The position numbers were made by a program, and so were the translations under genes. Below, in pieces: positions 2,320 to 14,852 of a stretch of 29,935 nt of DNA (the stretch's first letter is position 1; each line of letters starts with the position of its first letter). This DNA is from Clostridia bacterium. Lineage in GTDB: Bacteria > Bacillota > Clostridia > Christensenellales > UBA1242. Below the pieces are notes generated by a model, which was given only the letters and a program-made list of their open reading frames with translations, was not told the DNA's origin and searched no databases. The stretch is from NCBI GenBank assembly GCA_017473285.1, contig JAFULP010000007.1, positions 1 through 29,935 of the forward strand, in the 5' to 3' direction.

Positions 2320-4326
2320 ATGGAAAATAAAGAAAAATTTTATATTACAACAGCAATTGCTTATACTTCGGGTAAACCTCATATTGGAAATACATATGAG
2401 ATTATTTTGACCGACTCTATTGCGAGAGCAAAGCGAATGCAAGGATATGATGTTTTCTTTATGACAGGAACAGATGAACACGGCGAAAAAATTGAAATGA
2501 AGGCACAAGAAAAGGGTTTAACACCAAAAGCTTTTGTTGATAATGTGGCTGGAGATATAAAGCACCTTTGGGACTTTATGAATATTTCATACGATAAATT
2601 TATTAGAACTACTGATACTGAGCACGAAAAATGTGTGCAAAAAATCTTTAAAAAGTTCTATGAACAAGGCGATATTTATAAAGGTCATTACGAAGGATTA
2701 TATTGCACCCCTTGTGAAAGTTTTTGGACCGAAAGTCAATTAATAGACGGCAAGTGTCCAGACTGTGGCCGTGAAGTAAAACCTAGCAAGGAAGAAGCCT
2801 ATTTCTTTAAGATGAACAACTATGCTACAGGACTTTTAAAGCATATTATAACACATCCAGAGTTTATTACACCTGCTAGCAGAAGAAATGAAATGTTAAA
2901 TAATTTCTTGCTTGCGGATGAATTTGTGGGCAAAAGCGATGAAGAATTATTGACCGCTATTGAGCAGGGAACAATAAAAACTAAACTTCAAGATTTGTGC
3001 GTAAGCCGTAGCACATTTACCTGGGGAATTCCTGTTGAGTTTGACAGCAAACACGTAGTTTATGTTTGGTTAGATGCCTTAAATAACTATATTACTGGAA
3101 TTGGTTATGACACTGAAAATCCAAGTGAGCAGTACAAAAAGTTGTGGCCGGCAAATGTTCACGTTGTGGGTAAGGATATTATTCGTTTCCACACTATTTA
3201 TTGGCCAATATTCTTGATGGCTTTGGGCGAAGAATTGCCACAAAAAGTGCTTGTTCACCCTTGGCTACTACAAGGTGGCGAAAAGATGAGCAAATCAAAG
3301 GGAAATGTGTTATATTTTGATGATTTAGCATCAATCTTTGGTGTGGATAGTGTTAGATATTATGTGCTTCGTGAAATGCCATTTGTATCAGACGGCACAA
3401 TTACTTGGGAAATGTTGACAGAGAGAAATAATGCGGATTTGAGTAATGTTCTTGGCAACCTTGTAAGACGCACATTAAGTATGAGTAATCAATATTTTGG
3501 TGGAAAGGTTAGAAATTATAATGTTGCTGATATAATGGATGAAGACCTTAAAGCGATTGTTGTAGGTGCAAAAGCTAAAGTGTTTGCAAAAATTAATGAA
3601 TATAAGATTGCTGACGCTTTGGAAGAATTGTGGACAGTGTTTAGACGTGCAAATAAATATATTGACGAAACTGAACCTTGGAACTTAAATAAAGATGAAA
3701 CCAAGCGTGAAAGACTTTCAACAGTGTTATTTAACTTGCTTGAAGCAATTAATATTGGCGCAAATTTACTTGCTCCATTTATGCCAGAAACTGCAAATAA
3801 AATCTTTAATGAATTGGGTGTTACTGCCCGTGATTGTGATGAATTAGGCAACTTTGGGGCAACTGAAGAATTTAATGTAACCAACAATCCACAAATACTA
3901 TTTAATCGTATTAAATTTGAAGATATTAAACCAACTATTGATGAAATTGTGGCTAAGCAAAAGGCTGAAAATGCACCAGTAATTGAGTTTAAGGAAGCCG
4001 AACCTATCACTATTGATGATTTTGCTAAAGTGCAAATGAAAATAGGTGTAGTGTTGGCGTGTGAAGCAGTGCCAAAATCAAAACTTCTTCACTCTACTGT
4101 AAGGGTTGGCAATAAAACACTTTCAATTTTAAGCGGTATTGCAAAAGCGTATACCCCAGAACAAATGGTGGGTAAAAAAGTGGTAGTTGTAACCAATCTT
4201 CCACCAAGAGAAATGAAAGGATATCTAAGCGAAGGTATGATAGTGTGTGCTGAAGATGAAATTGGCAATATCTCATTATTAAGCCCAGAAAAAGATATTA
4301 TCGCTGATGGAAGCGAATGTTGTTAA
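2320..4326 (+). CDS. metG: Methionine--tRNA ligase with C-terminal tRNA-binding domain
   Basis: HIGN and KMSKS motifs, Zn knuckle CTPC...CPDC, YVWLDAL, VGKDI, C-terminal EMAP/Trbp-like domain; AAGGAG SD. Confidence 0.97.
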   Translation: MENKEKFYITTAIAYTSGKPHIGNTYEIILTDSIARAKRMQGYDVFFMTGTDEHGEKIEMKAQEKGLTPKAFVDNVAGDIKHLWDFMNISYDKFIRTTDTEHEKCVQKIFKKFYEQGDIYKGHYEGLYCTPCESFWTESQLIDGKCPDCGREVKPSKEEAYFFKMNNYATGLLKHIITHPEFITPASRRNEMLNNFLLADEFVGKSDEELLTAIEQGTIKTKLQDLCVSRSTFTWGIPVEFDSKHVVYVWLDALNNYITGIGYDTENPSEQYKKLWPANVHVVGKDIIRFHTIYWPIFLMALGEELPQKVLVHPWLLQGGEKMSKSKGNVLYFDDLASIFGVDSVRYYVLREMPFVSDGTITWEMLTERNNADLSNVLGNLVRRTLSMSNQYFGGKVRNYNVADIMDEDLKAIVVGAKAKVFAKINEYKIADALEELWTVFRRANKYIDETEPWNLNKDETKRERLSTVLFNLLEAINIGANLLAPFMPETANKIFNELGVTARDCDELGNFGATEEFNVTNNPQILFNRIKFEDIKPTIDEIVAKQKAENAPVIEFKEAEPITIDDFAKVQMKIGVVLACEAVPKSKLLHSTVRVGNKTLSILSGIAKAYTPEQMVGKKVVVVTNLPPREMKGYLSEGMIVCAEDEIGNISLLSPEKDIIADGSECC

Positions 4327-4337
4327 TAAAAAATAAT

Positions 4338-4373
4338 TTATCCACAAGTTGTACTCAATTTGTGGATTTTTTT
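4338..4373 (+). terminator. metG intrinsic terminator containing a perfect DnaA box (4338-4346)
   Basis: Stem atccacaa (4340-4347) / ttgtggat (4360-4367) followed by a T-run; TTATCCACA overlaps the left arm. Confidence 0.7.
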
Positions 4374-4554
4374 GTACATTTTTTATAAACTTTTTGGCGC
4401 AAAATACTTTTATTATATTAATAAATATGCTATAATATATTATATATAATAGGCAGATAGACTAAATATCTAATTTCAAGCAAATAATACCTATAAGGTT
4501 TTAAATTAGATTAAATTGCAAAGGTGATTTGTCTTATATGTTTAGGAGTGAATT

Positions 4555-6510
4555 ATGGCAGATGAATTAACTAAAGTTACACAGTATGATGAAAGTAATA
4601 TTCAAGTACTTGAAGGGCTTGAGCCAGTGCGTAAGCGCCCTGGTATGTATATTGGCTCTACCGATGAGCGTGGATTACACCATTTGGTAACTGAAATTGT
4701 AGATAATAGTATTGACGAAGCATTGGCTGGCTACTGTACTGAAATTAGCGTTACAATATTAAAAGACGGCTCAGTGCAAGTTATGGATAATGGGCGTGGT
4801 ATACCTACAGGTATTCACCCAAAGGAAGGGGTTAGTGCGGCAGAACTGGTACTTACCAAATTGCACGCTGGTGGTAAATTTGGCGGTGGCGGATATAAGA
4901 TATCGGGCGGATTGCACGGCGTAGGTTTATCGGTTGTTAACGCATTGTCTAGCACATTGCTTGTAGACATCTTCCAAAAGGGCGAACATTATCATCAAGA
5001 ATATCACCGTGGCGTGCCAACTGGTAGGCTTGAAGTTGTGGGCAAGATTGACAAGACTGGTACTTGCGTAACATTTACACCAGATGAGCAAATATTTGAC
5101 ACCACAATATTCAACTACGACACATTAAAGGTGCGTTTGCGTGAACTTGCATTCCTAAACAAAGGTTTGGTTATCAAAATTGAAGACCAGCGTGAAGGTC
5201 AAGAGCAACACAATGATTTTGTGTTTGAAGGCGGTATTAACGAATTTGTGCAAGAATTGACCGCTAGTAAGGAATGTGTGTTTGATAAGCCAATTTATGT
5301 AGATAAGATATATTCATACAAGCTCAAGAACGAAAATGGTGAAATGGTGCCAGCACAATGCGAAATTGAAGTAAGTTTCCAATATATTGACACATATAGC
5401 GAAAATATTCATACCTATGCTAACAATATCCGTACCGAAGAAGGTGGAAAGCACTTGGAAGGTTTTAAAAATGCTATTGCCAAAATCATCAATGATTATG
5501 CTATCAACAACCGTATGATTAAAGACACTCAAAAGATGAGTGGCGAAGATACTCGTGAAGGTTTGGTGGCGGTAGTGAGCGTAAAGGTGGAAGAACCACA
5601 ATTTGAAGGTCAAACCAAAACCAAACTAGGCAATGATGAAATTAGAACTTATACCACAAAGGCGGTAACTGAAGCGTTTGATATATATCTTGAAGAGCAT
5701 CCAAGACACGCCAAGGAATTAATCAATAAATGCTTGTTAAGCCAAAAGGCCCGTGAAGCGGCTAGAAACGCCCGTGAAGCCACAAGACGCAAGTCGGTGC
5801 TTGAAAGTACAGCCCTACCTGGTAAACTTGCCGATTGTAGCGAAAAAGACCCAAGCGTGTGCGAAATATTTATAGTCGAAGGCGACTCGGCGGGTGGAAG
5901 CGCTAAGCAAGGTCGTGATAGACGCTTCCAAGCAATTTTGCCATTAAGAGGTAAAATATTAAACGTTGAAAAAGTGCGTGAAGCCAAGGCGCTTGAAAAT
6001 GCCGAAATTCAAAGTATGATTACTGCATTTGGTTGTGGTATTGGTGCTGAGTGCGATTTGTCAAAGTTAAGATATGATAAAATCGTGTGTATGACCGATG
6101 CCGATGTGGACGGTGCACATATTAGAATATTGTTATTAACTTTCTTGTTTAGATTTATGCGTCCATTGGTGGAACAAGGTCATGTATACATTGCTCAACC
6201 ACCACTATACAAGGTGCAAAGAGGCAAGAAGGAAACTTATTGCTATAGCGACGATGAATTAAATCGAGATTTGGAACTAAACGGAAGCAAAGGTGCTGAA
6301 GTGCAAAGATACAAAGGTTTAGGTGAAATGGACCCAGAACAATTGTGGGACACTACTATGGACCCAGAACATAGAACTTTACTTCAAGTTAAGATTGATG
6401 ATGCAATACAAGCCAACGAAATTTTTGATATGTTGATGGGTGACCGCCCTGAATTAAGGCGTGAATTTATTGACCAAAATGCCGAACTTGTGAAAAATCT
6501 TGATATATAA
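4555..6510 (+). CDS. gyrB: DNA gyrase subunit B
   Basis: GHKL ATPase motifs (VRKRPGMYIG, DNSIDE, DNGRGIP, LHAGGKF), EGDSAGGSA, TDADVDG, RYKGLGEM. Confidence 0.97.
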   Translation: MADELTKVTQYDESNIQVLEGLEPVRKRPGMYIGSTDERGLHHLVTEIVDNSIDEALAGYCTEISVTILKDGSVQVMDNGRGIPTGIHPKEGVSAAELVLTKLHAGGKFGGGGYKISGGLHGVGLSVVNALSSTLLVDIFQKGEHYHQEYHRGVPTGRLEVVGKIDKTGTCVTFTPDEQIFDTTIFNYDTLKVRLRELAFLNKGLVIKIEDQREGQEQHNDFVFEGGINEFVQELTASKECVFDKPIYVDKIYSYKLKNENGEMVPAQCEIEVSFQYIDTYSENIHTYANNIRTEEGGKHLEGFKNAIAKIINDYAINNRMIKDTQKMSGEDTREGLVAVVSVKVEEPQFEGQTKTKLGNDEIRTYTTKAVTEAFDIYLEEHPRHAKELINKCLLSQKAREAARNAREATRRKSVLESTALPGKLADCSEKDPSVCEIFIVEGDSAGGSAKQGRDRRFQAILPLRGKILNVEKVREAKALENAEIQSMITAFGCGIGAECDLSKLRYDKIVCMTDADVDGAHIRILLLTFLFRFMRPLVEQGHVYIAQPPLYKVQRGKKETYCYSDDELNRDLELNGSKGAEVQRYKGLGEMDPEQLWDTTMDPEHRTLLQVKIDDAIQANEIFDMLMGDRPELRREFIDQNAELVKNLDI

Positions 6511-6520
6511 GGAATAAATT

Positions 6521-9010
6521 ATGAAAAAGAATGAAGTATTTGAAAAAATAGACAATACAAGATATTTTGAAAGAAATCTTGAACACGAAATGAAAGAGTC
6601 GTTTATGGGCTATGCAATGGCGGTAAATGTATCTCGTGCTATTCCAGATGTGCGTGACGGTATGAAGCCTGTTCATAGGCGTATTTTGTATGCTATGAGT
6701 GAAGAAGGATTGTGGAGTGACAAACCTTTTAGAAAATGTGCAAAGATTGTCGGTGATGTGCTAGGTAGATATCACCCTCACGGCGACAGTTCGGTGTATG
6801 ATGCATTAACTCGTTTGGCTCAAAACTTTTCAATTAACGAGATATTGGTAGATGGTCACGGTAACTTTGGTTCGGTGGACGGCGATAAGCCAGCGGCATA
6901 TCGTTATACCGAAGCTAGACTTAGCAAAATTTCAAATGAATTATTGCGTGATATTGATAAGGATACAGTAGATTTTTATCCAAACTTTGATAATACTCGT
7001 ATGCAACCAGTGGTGTTGCCTAGCCGTTTTCCAAACTTGTTGGTAAATGGTAGTGACGGTATTGCGGTAGGTATGGCAACCAATATCCCACCACACAATC
7101 TAGGCGAAGTGATTGATGGTGTGGTTGCACTTATTGACAATCCTGAAATTACTGTTGACGAACTTATGCAAATAATCCCTGCACCTGACTTCCCAACTGG
7201 TGGTCAAGTGCTAGGTCAAAATGCAATTCGTGAAGCGTATCGTACTGGTAAGGGTGGAATTATCATCCGTTCAAAAGCCGAAATTGAAACTTATGGTGAC
7301 GGCAAGCGTTATCGTATTGTGGTAAACGAAATACCTTACCAAGTAAACAAAGCAAAACTTATTATGCAAATTGCTGACCTTGTTAAAGATAAGCGTATTG
7401 AAGGCATTAGTGATATTCGTGATGAATCGGATAAGGACGGGCTTAGAATTGTTATTGAAGTTAAAAAGGACGCAAATGCACAAATTGTGTTAAATCAACT
7501 TTACAAGATGTCACAACTTCAAGTATCAAATGGTATTATATTGCTTTGCTTGTCACACAATAAGCCACAACTACTAAACCTAAAGCAAATTTTGGAAGAA
7601 TATCTTGAATTCCAAAAGGAAGTAATTACAAGGCGTACAACTCACGACCTTGAAAAAGCAAAAGAGCGTGAGCATATTATTGAAGGCTTGGTAATTGCAG
7701 TTAGAAATATTGATGAAGTTATTAGCATTATCAAAAAGTCAAAAGACAAAGTCGATGCAATGCAAAAATTGCAAGATAAGTTTGAATTAAGCGAAAAGCA
7801 ATCAAATGCAATCTTGGAAATGAAGTTGTCAAGACTTACTGGTTTGGAAGTGGAAAAACTTAATGCTGAACTAGAAGAACTTTGTGCAATTATCAAGGAA
7901 CTTAGCGACATACTTGCTTCACCTGTGCGCATTGCTAATATTATTCGTGAAGAAATATTGCAAATTAAGGACAAGTATGCTAGCCCTAGAAAGAGCGAAG
8001 TAAGCCTTGATTATGACGATATTGATATTGGTGACTTGATTGCTCGTCACGAAGTAATCATTTCACTTACTGAAGAAGGATATATTAAGCGCTTGCCTGC
8101 AAATGAGTACAAGTCACAACATCGTGGCGGTAAAGGTGTGGTAGGGCACAAGGCAAAGGACGAAGATGTGATTGTGGATATGATTAGTTGTAACAGCCAC
8201 GACGATCTGATGTTCTTTACTAATGTGGGTAAAGTGTATGGGCTAAAAGCATACACAATCCCAGAAGCAACCAAAACATCTAAGGGTAGAGCAATTATTA
8301 ACTTGTTGCCACTTCAAACGGATGAAAAAATTACTGCTATTGTAAATAACGCTAAGGATAAGCAATCATTATTTATGGCAACACAGCAAGGCTACATCAA
8401 AAAGACTGCTATGAAGGAATTTGAGTTGTTGCGTAAAAATGGTAAAATTGCTATTAAATTAATGGAAGATGACCAATTAGTAAGCGTGCAAGCAACTACT
8501 GGCGATGACGAATTATTGATTGCATCAAACAATGGCAGATGTGTACGATTTAAGGAAACTGATGTTAGAAATTTAGGCAGAAGTTCTCGTGGTGTTAAGG
8601 GTATGAAGATTGACAAGGATGAAAAGATTATTGATATGATAGTTTTAAATCCTGATAAAGATATCCTAACTGTTACTGAACTAGGTTATGCAAAACGCAC
8701 AAAGATTGAGGATTATAGATTGCAATCTCGCAGAGGTAAAGGAACAAAGGCTGGAAGATTTAATGAAAAGACTGGTGACATTGTAGCAATTAAACCAATT
8801 GATGAAAATCAAGATATAATTGCAATTACTTCAAACGGTATTGTTATTCGTACTCATGCTGACCAAATTAATGAAGTTGGTCGTACTGCATTGGGTGTAA
8901 AACTTATGAATACATCGGGTTGCAAGATTGTTGGTGTGTCAGTGGTTGAACGTCAAGAAGAAGAGCTGGCAGATGAAGATACAACCGAACAAGAAAGTAC
9001 TAACGAATAG
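6521..9010 (+). CDS. gyrA: DNA gyrase subunit A
   Basis: [25 protein letters not shown]; the GyrA-box QHRGGKG distinguishes it from ParC. Confidence 0.97.
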
Positions 9011-14492: not shown

Positions 14493-14518
14493 TATCTAAT
14501 TTAAAATTAATATTAAAC

Positions 14519-14544
14519 AAACTAAATCGAACCCGATTTAGTTT
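14519..14544 (-). terminator. Hairpin downstream of the tRNA
   Basis: Perfect 11-bp stem aaactaaatcg/cgatttagttt, U-rich downstream on -. Confidence 0.7.
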
Positions 14545-14549
14545 AGTAG

Positions 14550-14624
14550 TGGTGCGCTTATCAGGATTCGAACCCGAACTAATGGTTCCGAAGACCATTG
14601 TGCTATCCATTACACCATAAACGC
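14550..14624 (-). tRNA. tRNA-Arg(UCG), 75 nt, CCA encoded
   Basis: Acceptor GCGTTTA/TAAGCGC, D-arm GTGT-AATGGATA-GCAC (A20, an Arg identity element), anticodon arm ATGGT-CTTCGGA-ACCAT (TCG at 14589-14591), T-arm TCGGG-TTCGAAT-CCTGA, ACCA end. Confidence 0.93.
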
Positions 14625-14630
14625 AAACAC

Positions 14631-14817
14631 AATAAATAAATCAACAGTGTTGGCAAACAATACATTGTTGATATTATCGGAAGTTGTCGTCAAGCAGCCC
14701 GAAGGGATATTTGACAGCAACTGATGGTTATACATACTTCGGAAGGCTAGATTTTAATCTAGCACACAATTTTAGTTGTGTTAAAATCAATTTTTTGATT
14801 TTACTTCCGATAGTTTA
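14631..14817 (-). ncRNA. Unidentified structured RNA or tRNA leader (four-way junction, UUCG hairpin, terminal hairpin)
   Basis: Multiple perfect stems in a non-coding stretch between a consensus promoter and the tRNA. It matches no RNA family I recognise. Confidence 0.6.
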
Positions 14818-14823
14818 TAATAT

Positions 14824-14852
14824 ATTATATCATAACTTAACAATATGTGCAA
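14824..14852 (-). promoter_or_regulatory. Sigma-A promoter driving the structured RNA and probably the tRNA
   Basis: TTGCAC-N17-TATAAT with extended -10 TG. Confidence 0.75.

Follow-up and report, generated by a model that had tools for sequence, protein, structure and literature searches.

Among the small interspersed repeats described in bacteria, the one that appears closest to the element considered here is bcr1 of the Bacillus cereus group, a repeat of about 155 bp with 5-bp flanking repeats and non-conserved positions, in which compensatory changes keep a cruciform-like fold (PMC3184786). Correia/NEMIS, RUP, BOX, RPE, and ERIC are also short, gene-less, structured and intergenic, are often co-transcribed with their neighbours and, in the case of BOX, are modular (PMC3184786). 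The present element lies in a window of 29,935 nucleotides, the whole stretch of DNA that was analysed (positions 1 to 29,935, forward strand, of contig JAFULP010000007.1, assembly GCA_017473285.1), from a Clostridia bacterium of the Christensenellales (UBA1242). A sequence-only reading of this DNA, made by a model that ran no database searches, had singled out a perfect 72-nt cloverleaf, or four-way junction, at the start of a transcript leading into a tRNA-Arg(UCG) gene. We find that this cloverleaf is one half, module A, of a two-module, gene-less, strongly folded repeat unit of about 148 nt, and that the family to which it belongs is a variant on a type of repeat known from bacteria, small, structured and interspersed; the window adds to this family a clean insertion into a tRNA leader. 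Compared by description, the likeness to bcr1 is one of kind only. Both would count as non-coding units of roughly 150 bp in a Bacillota lineage, with numerous copies in intergenic DNA at positions that vary from one close relative to another, a 5-bp A/T-rich flanking repeat, a branched fold with compensatory changes, and no known transposase. The lineages are nevertheless unrelated, and the unit described here combines a strict four-way junction with a separate conserved hairpin and forms head-to-tail arrays, some of them mixed, with palindromic dif-like joints. Moreover, bcr1 is known to be transcribed, whereas our unit is known here from DNA sequence alone.

The cloverleaf occupies positions 14739 to 14810 of the minus strand, as do all features of the locus given below by coordinates. 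Its closing stem of 7 bp and its hairpins of 9, 6, and 7 bp amount to 29 pairs, Watson-Crick throughout, with zero unpaired bases at the junction, exactly as had been claimed from the letters. The four-way junction is both the minimum-energy and the centroid structure in RNAfold, and its energy of -26.4 kcal/mol (-6.4 +/- 2.2 for shuffled sequences; z = -9.0) was reached by none of 200 dinucleotide shuffles. The whole repeat unit spans 14671 to 14818, a border set by alignments of copies and matched by the 148 nt missing from an empty allele described below. Read 5' to 3', a unit consists of TATAA, A(C/T)TAT, the 5' strand of the closing stem, three hairpins, the 3' strand of the closing stem, a linker that ends in TCAG, the module B hairpin, and a tail. 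The TATAA pentamer at the 5' border (14816 to 14820), delineated from the 5' flanks of 49 non-internal units, is either an insertion target or a direct repeat. The single-stranded linker (14721 to 14738) is among the most conserved stretches in an alignment of 37 copies, its final CAG being almost invariant, and it is also retained in diverged copies with a different hairpin. Module B (14682 to 14722) scores 88.5 bits with its covariance model, R1, and consists of an outer helix, internal-loop strands, and an inner hairpin; the loop strands YAAAT and GCTT are conserved, as is a pyrimidine-pyrimidine mismatch in the inner hairpin. The conserved 3' tail, CTTCCGATAATAT (14671 to 14683; family consensus CTTCC(G/T)A(T/A)A(A/T)TAT(AA)), repeats the opening bases of module A in inverted form, as the alignments show. 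One 5' strand can thus pair either with the 3' strand of the closing stem or with this tail, which explains the two alternative partners of that strand noted separately before. In the window's subfamily and in genome G022, the terminal inverted repeats reach 9-11 bp (TATCGGAAG / CTTCCGATA).

Two further functions of the unit itself were considered on inspection and set aside. Module B contains TTGACG, which resembles a -35 hexamer, but no more than 11-16 nt separate it from the -10-like tail, a distance that differs between subtypes, so that a promoter carried by the unit is not a satisfactory account. The antisense linker reads CUGAYG, like the core of a hammerhead, but A9 and stem II are missing and there is no Rfam match, which argues against a self-cleaving ribozyme.

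The unit is dispersed. The window's own genome (G000; 889 kb in 105 contigs, 85.6% complete) holds nine strong copies of module B, in two subtypes by pattern search, plus a weak tenth match at C9, and ahead of each module B copy stands a module A, about 70 nt long, of other sequence and also rich in hairpins. Copies beyond the window lie at seven loci (eight units), none of which adjoins a tRNA gene; their neighbours are unrelated housekeeping genes, including those for NrdR, FabG, a deaminase, a subtilase, GltX, and infC/rpmI/rplT. A second copy of the window's cloverleaf type, on contig C37, is 87% identical to the first and has a hairpin 2 of different sequence with its pairing intact. Across the genus, R1 finds 37 module B copies in 8 of 64 genomes, with weaker, genuine diverged copies in four further genomes; another 18 copies lie in three other genera, two of them from other families of the order, one genome of 1.8 Mb containing 14. 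The exact module B pattern, searched over 185,579 species genomes, hits 45 stretches, all from metagenome-assembled genomes (MAGs) of uncultured Clostridia, Candidatus Onthoplasma or Christensenellales, and within these stretches R1 makes 71 matches. In total the family comprises more than 120 units in about 25 MAGs of uncultured Christensenellales, namely UBA1242/Onthoplasma and a few other genera. Members of the family UBA1242, genus Onthoplasma, are gut bacteria of farm animals with genomes below 1 Mb, which rank among the smallest in the animal gut, and a coding density of about 0.9 (PMC12306168). The viral contigs, phage records, and plasmid records that were scanned gave no matches to the unit, and no description of this repeat family was found in Rfam or in the literature searched. 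Decayed copies were met as well: in a CAMLSW MAG with a reduced genome, L067 contains very AT-rich stretches of 1.6-2.4 kb that are free of open reading frames (ORFs; 2380-4700 and ~5200-7600), which hold decayed unit copies together with three copies of a palindrome, TTGTTTCACGTGAAACA, that may be an operator.

By a crude ORF-based count, the units form 57 single loci and 18 arrays of two to four head-to-tail units with a period of about 148 nt. Arrays may mix unit types, and the identical two types are found in either order in different arrays, which points to separate insertions at the joints between units and not to duplication of a block. Empty sites tell a similar story at three loci of the window's genome. 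In the infC-rpmI gap, the unit follows the stop codon of infC and precedes the ribosome-binding site of rpmI, and in eight relatives (80-90% DNA identity at the locus) the site is empty and the genes abut. At the deaminase locus on C37, the unit is replaced in four relatives by 10-30 nt, with the sequence TATA(A/C)C at the empty site. The third locus is that of the window itself. In X1, one of the DNA metagenomes containing the window's organism, one contig joins position 14657 to position 14819, without the 148 nt from 14671 to 14818; its 19 bridging letters are, barring two, a diverged copy of the 3' flank at 14658 to 14670, the joint resting on a single low-depth contig (depth 2.5) with a shorter side of 30 nt. 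Coverage of module B in a DNA metagenome is about three times that of its flanks, as expected of a collapsed repeat. Relatives G003 and G050, which carry the family elsewhere, keep the tRNA-Arg promoter (TTGCAC/TTGCGC-N17-TGnTATAAT) without the unit. Taken together, dispersal, arrays, and empty sites make it probable that the unit is, or recently was, mobile. The infC-rpmI region of G003 was matched twice, at C2:21322-22105, apparently with the unit (79% across it), and at C28:1-563, which starts past it (88%), a result that suggests strain heterogeneity or a second allele in the MAG. In the orthologues of L009 (8520-8800) in G050, G051, G052, and G063, the deaminase gene and the downstream ORF form a divergent pair parted by 10-30 nt that are unshared with G000, and so short an empty spacer fits the leaderless divergent genes noted separately in G000.

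At the window locus, the unit can be placed precisely against the features that frame it. The native tRNA-Arg promoter (14824 to 14851) lies outside the repeat and was recovered by a promoter scan with 10 of 12 matches, its first hexamer beginning at 14851 and its TG-extended TATAAT ending at 14824; the -35-like hexamer is TGCACA as the scan places it or TTGCAC as it had been placed before. Downstream of the unit follow the native leader, with a small hairpin of its own (14625 to 14670), a diverged form of which is present in the empty allele of X1, the tRNA-Arg(UCG) gene (14550 to 14624; found by ARAGORN with a TCG anticodon and by the Rfam tRNA model at 63.6 bits), and a terminator-like hairpin (14518 to 14545; 12 pairs and then a T-rich tail in a terminator scan). 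The arrangement proposed by the sequence-only reading, an extended -10 promoter followed by the cloverleaf and then by tRNA-Arg(UCG), is thus borne out by independent programs, and the cloverleaf sits within what is predicted to be a short promoter-to-terminator transcription unit shared with the tRNA. Radical SAM and superoxide dismutase (SOD) genes are the neighbours of this tRNA unit in the window.

It had further been suggested that the cloverleaf might mimic a tRNA or serve as a processing signal, and a role dedicated to the tRNA-Arg(UCG) precursor, in its processing or regulation, is the reading that the window by itself would invite, the unit lying in the leader of that gene and behind its promoter. 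Units are also found upstream of tRNA genes elsewhere: in another MAG, a unit stands about 145 nt upstream of tRNA-Arg(TCG) (L071, 5795-6091), and in G050 a six-tRNA cluster has one about 316 nt upstream (L047, 1416-2483). The L071 unit is, however, at a different position relative to its tRNA, the seven other loci in the window's genome have no adjacent tRNA, and the relatives described above have the same tRNA-Arg promoter and no unit. Nor does the cloverleaf look like a tRNA to the programs that recognise them. The Rfam tRNA model and ARAGORN are silent on 14739 to 14810 even at E up to 10 and match only 14550 to 14624; arms of 7/9/6/7 bp without junction linkers depart from the 7/4/5/5 geometry of a tRNA with its linkers; D-loop and T-loop bases and CCA are absent, the 3' continuation being AGTATG. 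We regard a tRNA mimic or a dedicated tRNA-Arg signal as so improbable as to be nearly negligible, and a dedicated role of the unit in tRNA-Arg expression is effectively excluded. Strong promoters with a consensus TATAAT may be favoured TATAA targets.

In four relatives (L104 in G003, L102 in G051, L106 in G075, and L108 in G049), the 5' half of tRNA-Arg(TCG), bases 1-41 through the anticodon loop, is duplicated about 170-200 nt upstream of the gene, and the duplicate is followed by a conserved, structured-looking insert of about 115 nt and then by the full tRNA. This arrangement resembles what a small element aimed at the anticodon loop might leave as a scar or bring in as cargo. At L108 and L111, the DNA past the tRNA likewise holds a partial copy of the tRNA, in this case of its 3' end.

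Sequence variation among the dispersed copies shows that the fold is what has been maintained. In module B, nine of 16 pairs have double changes across 37 copies, and the covariation score of 0.386 (0.197 for shuffles) was equalled by none of 500 shuffles and falls to at most 0.167 when the partners are slid; the outer helix covaries freely, as TTGCTGT/ACGACAA, ATTACAC/GTGTAAT, and AAATTAT/ATAATTT. For module A, a covariance model (R2) built from 19 copies, with the window copy left out, recovers the window cloverleaf at 14740 to 14809 with 29.3 bits (E = 0.003 in 484 kb). By minimum energy, 68 of 106 distinct module A sequences adopt a closing stem that encloses three simple hairpins, neither more nor fewer, and among them the closing stem takes 33 different sequences and each hairpin comes in 43-51 versions. 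Across 74 distinct copies, 26 of 29 pairs have double changes, with a score of 0.346 as compared to 0.134 for shuffles, none of 500 reaching it, and no more than 0.129 with the partners slid, in an alignment that was guided by the model and therefore leans towards structure; a sequence-only MAFFT alignment across subfamilies was too poor for pair scoring. The closing helix is paired in 96.6% of cells, and hairpin 2 is poorly aligned between subtypes (45% paired). These data suggest that the four-way junction is a selected architecture of the whole family and not a peculiarity of the tRNA-Arg locus.

A conserved fold raises the question of whether it acts as RNA, that is, whether the unit is a structured non-coding RNA family of small RNAs or cis elements (transcript stabilisers, RNase processing sites, or protein-binding scaffolds) spread by duplication and held under selection at the RNA level. 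Extensive compensatory change in both modules is what such a family would display, as are the conserved single-stranded linker, the internal-loop motifs, and the pyrimidine-pyrimidine mismatch, and several hairpins are capped by loops of the UUCG or UAAC type. Most copies have a -10-like TATAAA about 7 nt before the closing stem, and the window copy is certainly inside a transcription unit. Between co-directional genes, the sense orientation is favoured by 20 to 11, further settings being nine convergent and nine divergent. The unit nonetheless occurs in both orientations, and in G022 it lies antisense immediately behind a hisS-like gene's consensus promoter. The sense strand shows no excess of G.U pairs (73 sense and 100 antisense in module A; 82 and 86 in module B), so that neither RNA strand is marked as the functional form, and the earlier caution that the structure could fold on either DNA strand holds. 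The folding energy of the antisense strand is lower, which reflects loop composition and not wobble pairs. No terminator follows the unit, and single units have no conserved -35. The spread of the family is patchy across families of the order, with highly similar copies in distant carriers, and insertion polymorphism between species with 85-90% DNA identity at the infC-rplT locus points to mobility and not to an inherited gene. Nor does the unit match any known RNA family, as the sequence-only reading had anticipated: Rfam was blank for the cloverleaf at gathering scores and at E up to 10, and in the scan only the tRNA was above threshold, the next best match having 10.6 bits and E = 7.5. On balance, we judge an RNA family of this type to be unlikely.

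The borders of the unit bear more directly on how it might move. In the 5' flanks of the 49 non-internal units, the pentamer is read with frequencies of T.78 A.59 T.65 A.86 A.65, and the two bases past the terminal TAT are A.82 and A.77, so that TATAA brackets the unit and could be either a 5-bp direct repeat or a fixed target. Within arrays, the tail forms the left arm of a palindromic, dif-like joint: tail, shared TATAA(A), and head of the next unit make two inverted arms of about 11 bp around a 6-bp core, the arms being near-perfect palindromes in the window's subfamily. The general layout, ACTTCCGATAA-TATAAA-(C/T)TAT..GAAGT, fits a dif-type site of about 28 bp. The joint on C64, ACTTCCGATAA-TATAAA-TTATAAGAAGT, agrees with the palindromic consensus with one mismatch and shares 21 of 28 bases (seven mismatches) with the dif site of Bacillus subtilis, in the exact form that occurs in PMC3025954. 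In the window's genome, only three other sites are as close to that sequence (1.78 Mb, both strands).

A joint of this form can be set beside the integrative mobile elements exploiting Xer (IMEX), as in the attP(+) site of the CTX phage, and beside the attC sites of integrons. In both attP(+) and attC, a folded single strand presents the recombination site, and the unit could do likewise; the two inverted arms, the 6-bp A/T core, the mixed tandem arrays at the joint, and a host gene for an Xer-type recombinase would complete the parallel. The differences are that the unit is gene-less and only 148 bp long, that it sits at many TATAA sites and not at a single dif, and that its flanks are without arms. 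A minimal gene-less integrative element of 148 bp, whose folded single strand would present a dif-like core to the single Xer-type tyrosine recombinase of the host, with insertion both at joints between units and at TATAA pseudo-sites all over a genome below 1 Mb, is by this analogy a tentative possibility to which we give limited but real weight. Integration at a host dif is not what was found, units lying at many loci with flanks that show TATAA only. One candidate for a real dif in the window's genome, on C102, was discarded; it is not conserved in the genus, and its counts were no better than those of a reversed-pattern control. As a separate observation, a 28-mer, (A/G/T)ATTCCTAAAATACTTAA(T/A)ATATA(A/T)CCT, occurs nearly identically and once each in G019, G053, G065, and G006, and is a candidate for the true dif site in some members of the genus.

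The search for a mobilising enzyme was largely negative. The Y1 HUH transposase domain Y1_Tnp was absent from the eight clear carriers in the genus and from G170, G129, and G132 (98-100% complete), in a search that was positive in control genomes and in other genomes of the genus; the searches for other enzymes were positive in controls. RVT_1 gave no match in five carriers, and a retron, a diversity-generating retroelement, or a group II intron was set aside on that basis. TnpB and the IS110 transposase were likewise not found in the five carriers searched for each, and the unit was accordingly rejected as a TnpB omega RNA or an IS110 bridge RNA. Serine recombinases occur in some carriers, two of them 2-3 kb from a unit, but G050, with seven units, has none. 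An insertion sequence that could be the parent, with ends like those of the unit, did not turn up in the carriers searched for Y1_Tnp, TnpB, and IS110, DDE families not having been searched, and self-BLAST of the window's genome showed no repeat longer than 680 bp. What 61 of the 64 genomes of the genus do share is a single conserved tyrosine recombinase, about 355 aa long, which in the window's genome is encoded on C92 (7313-8386).

These results weigh on the possibility that the unit is a REP/BIME-like repeat or a palindrome-associated transposable element (PATE) derived from IS200/IS605, moved as single-stranded DNA by a Y1 HUH enzyme that acts on sub-terminal hairpins and inserts it 3' of TATAA without duplication. 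Repetitive extragenic palindromic (REP) sequences, with the BIME and REPIN arrangements mobilised by the Y1 HUH protein RAYT, resemble the unit in being extragenic and palindromic, in occurring singly or arrayed, and in keeping their pairing by compensatory change. In B'-type units, the 5' flank is variable (NNTAA) and the 3' TATAA nearly constant, as would fit insertion after a target pentamer; hairpins with conserved mismatches lie near both ends; a single TATAA is shared within head-to-tail arrays; and some genomes of the genus do have Y1 transposases. Set against this are the lack of Y1_Tnp and TnpB in the carriers just listed, the absence of any module B match near the Y1 loci of other genomes, and wobble pairs (G.T in DNA) that show no bias to one strand. 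The empty tRNA-Arg allele fits a short duplication better than a model without duplication, and the unit is four times longer than REP sequences, branched, and without a GTAG or CGTC tag. Movement by a Y1 HUH enzyme thus seems to us very unlikely.

We consider it probable that the unit is a non-coding, non-autonomous, structured mobile DNA repeat of about 148 bp, and that the window copy is a passenger in the tRNA-Arg leader. One unit would have been inserted between the -10 box of a pre-existing tRNA-Arg promoter and the tRNA. RNase P removes the 5' leader in tRNA maturation; to judge from its position, the unit would be co-transcribed as an extra 5' leader and discarded when RNase P cuts at the 5' end of the tRNA. 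The single-strand fold, as DNA or RNA, would be recognised together with the conserved linker and tail by the machinery of propagation. Site-specific recombination at unit joints, by the host Xer-type enzyme or another recombinase, would then produce mixed arrays, and occasional recombination at TATAA pseudo-sites would found new loci. This mechanism is favoured, though unproven, because two inverted arms of about 11 bp with TATAAA between them give the joint the look of a core site for a tyrosine recombinase.

Several observations weigh against this account of a mobile DNA repeat. No enzyme is tied to the unit, and the tyrosine recombinase of about 355 aa is found equally in genomes without it, which makes it non-discriminating. 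The host dif was not identified in the window's genome, whether beside the xer gene, by palindrome search, or among candidate sites, and canonical Xer-dependent elements integrate only at dif. Beyond TATAA, the chromosomal flanks of the 49 non-internal units are only AT-rich background, with no conservation resembling a recombinase arm. The three pairs of filled and empty sites are compatible with a 3-5-bp duplication (with one mismatch each) or with insertion beside a fixed pentamer, and for the tRNA-Arg site there is the low-depth joint in X1. In the commonest (GTGATG) subfamily, the terminal inverted repeats are only about 5 bp, unlike a textbook MITE (miniature inverted-repeat transposable element). 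The conserved linker, internal loops, and pyrimidine-pyrimidine mismatch would suit a protein-binding RNA equally well, and the sense orientation is about twice as frequent as antisense between co-directional genes. With respect to MITEs and modular repeats in general, the unit is similarly short, non-coding, multi-copy, present or absent between relatives and, like BOX, modular. It differs in that its terminal inverted repeats are short or subfamily-specific, in that a parent insertion sequence was not found within the searches described above, and in that it consists of a conserved multi-helix architecture of variable sequence and not of one long hairpin formed from both ends.

The unit is not the only hairpin-rich repeat in this organism. 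A second, unrelated hairpin-rich family, of about 130-190 bp with TATGAA(A/G) motifs and short GC hairpins, occurs in the window's genome at C37:15950-16136, C41:1863-2051, C58:5601-5748, C2:15065-15202, C2:9201-9330, C17:757-892, and C85:2549-2714, one copy lying about 190 nt upstream of a 148-nt unit on C2.

In annotation, the family described here gives rise to false calls of riboswitches, small RNAs, and tRNA-like structures; masking it or modelling it, for example by means of R1 and R2, is advisable. As a compact natural substrate in which a perfect four-way junction stands beside a dif-like palindrome, the unit lends itself to asking how gene-less elements move when they lack a transposase of their own, and it could help to ask if the Xer enzymes of a host can be drawn away from dif to act elsewhere. 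If the element were indeed mobilised in this manner by the Xer-type recombinase of its host, no smaller Xer parasite would be known, and none before it would have spread genome-wide instead of staying at dif. For the bacteria that carry it, the distribution of the family means that reduced genomes of less than 1 Mb tolerate a proliferating, structured element of 148 bp inside essential transcription units, as in the tRNA-Arg leader and the infC-rpmI gap.

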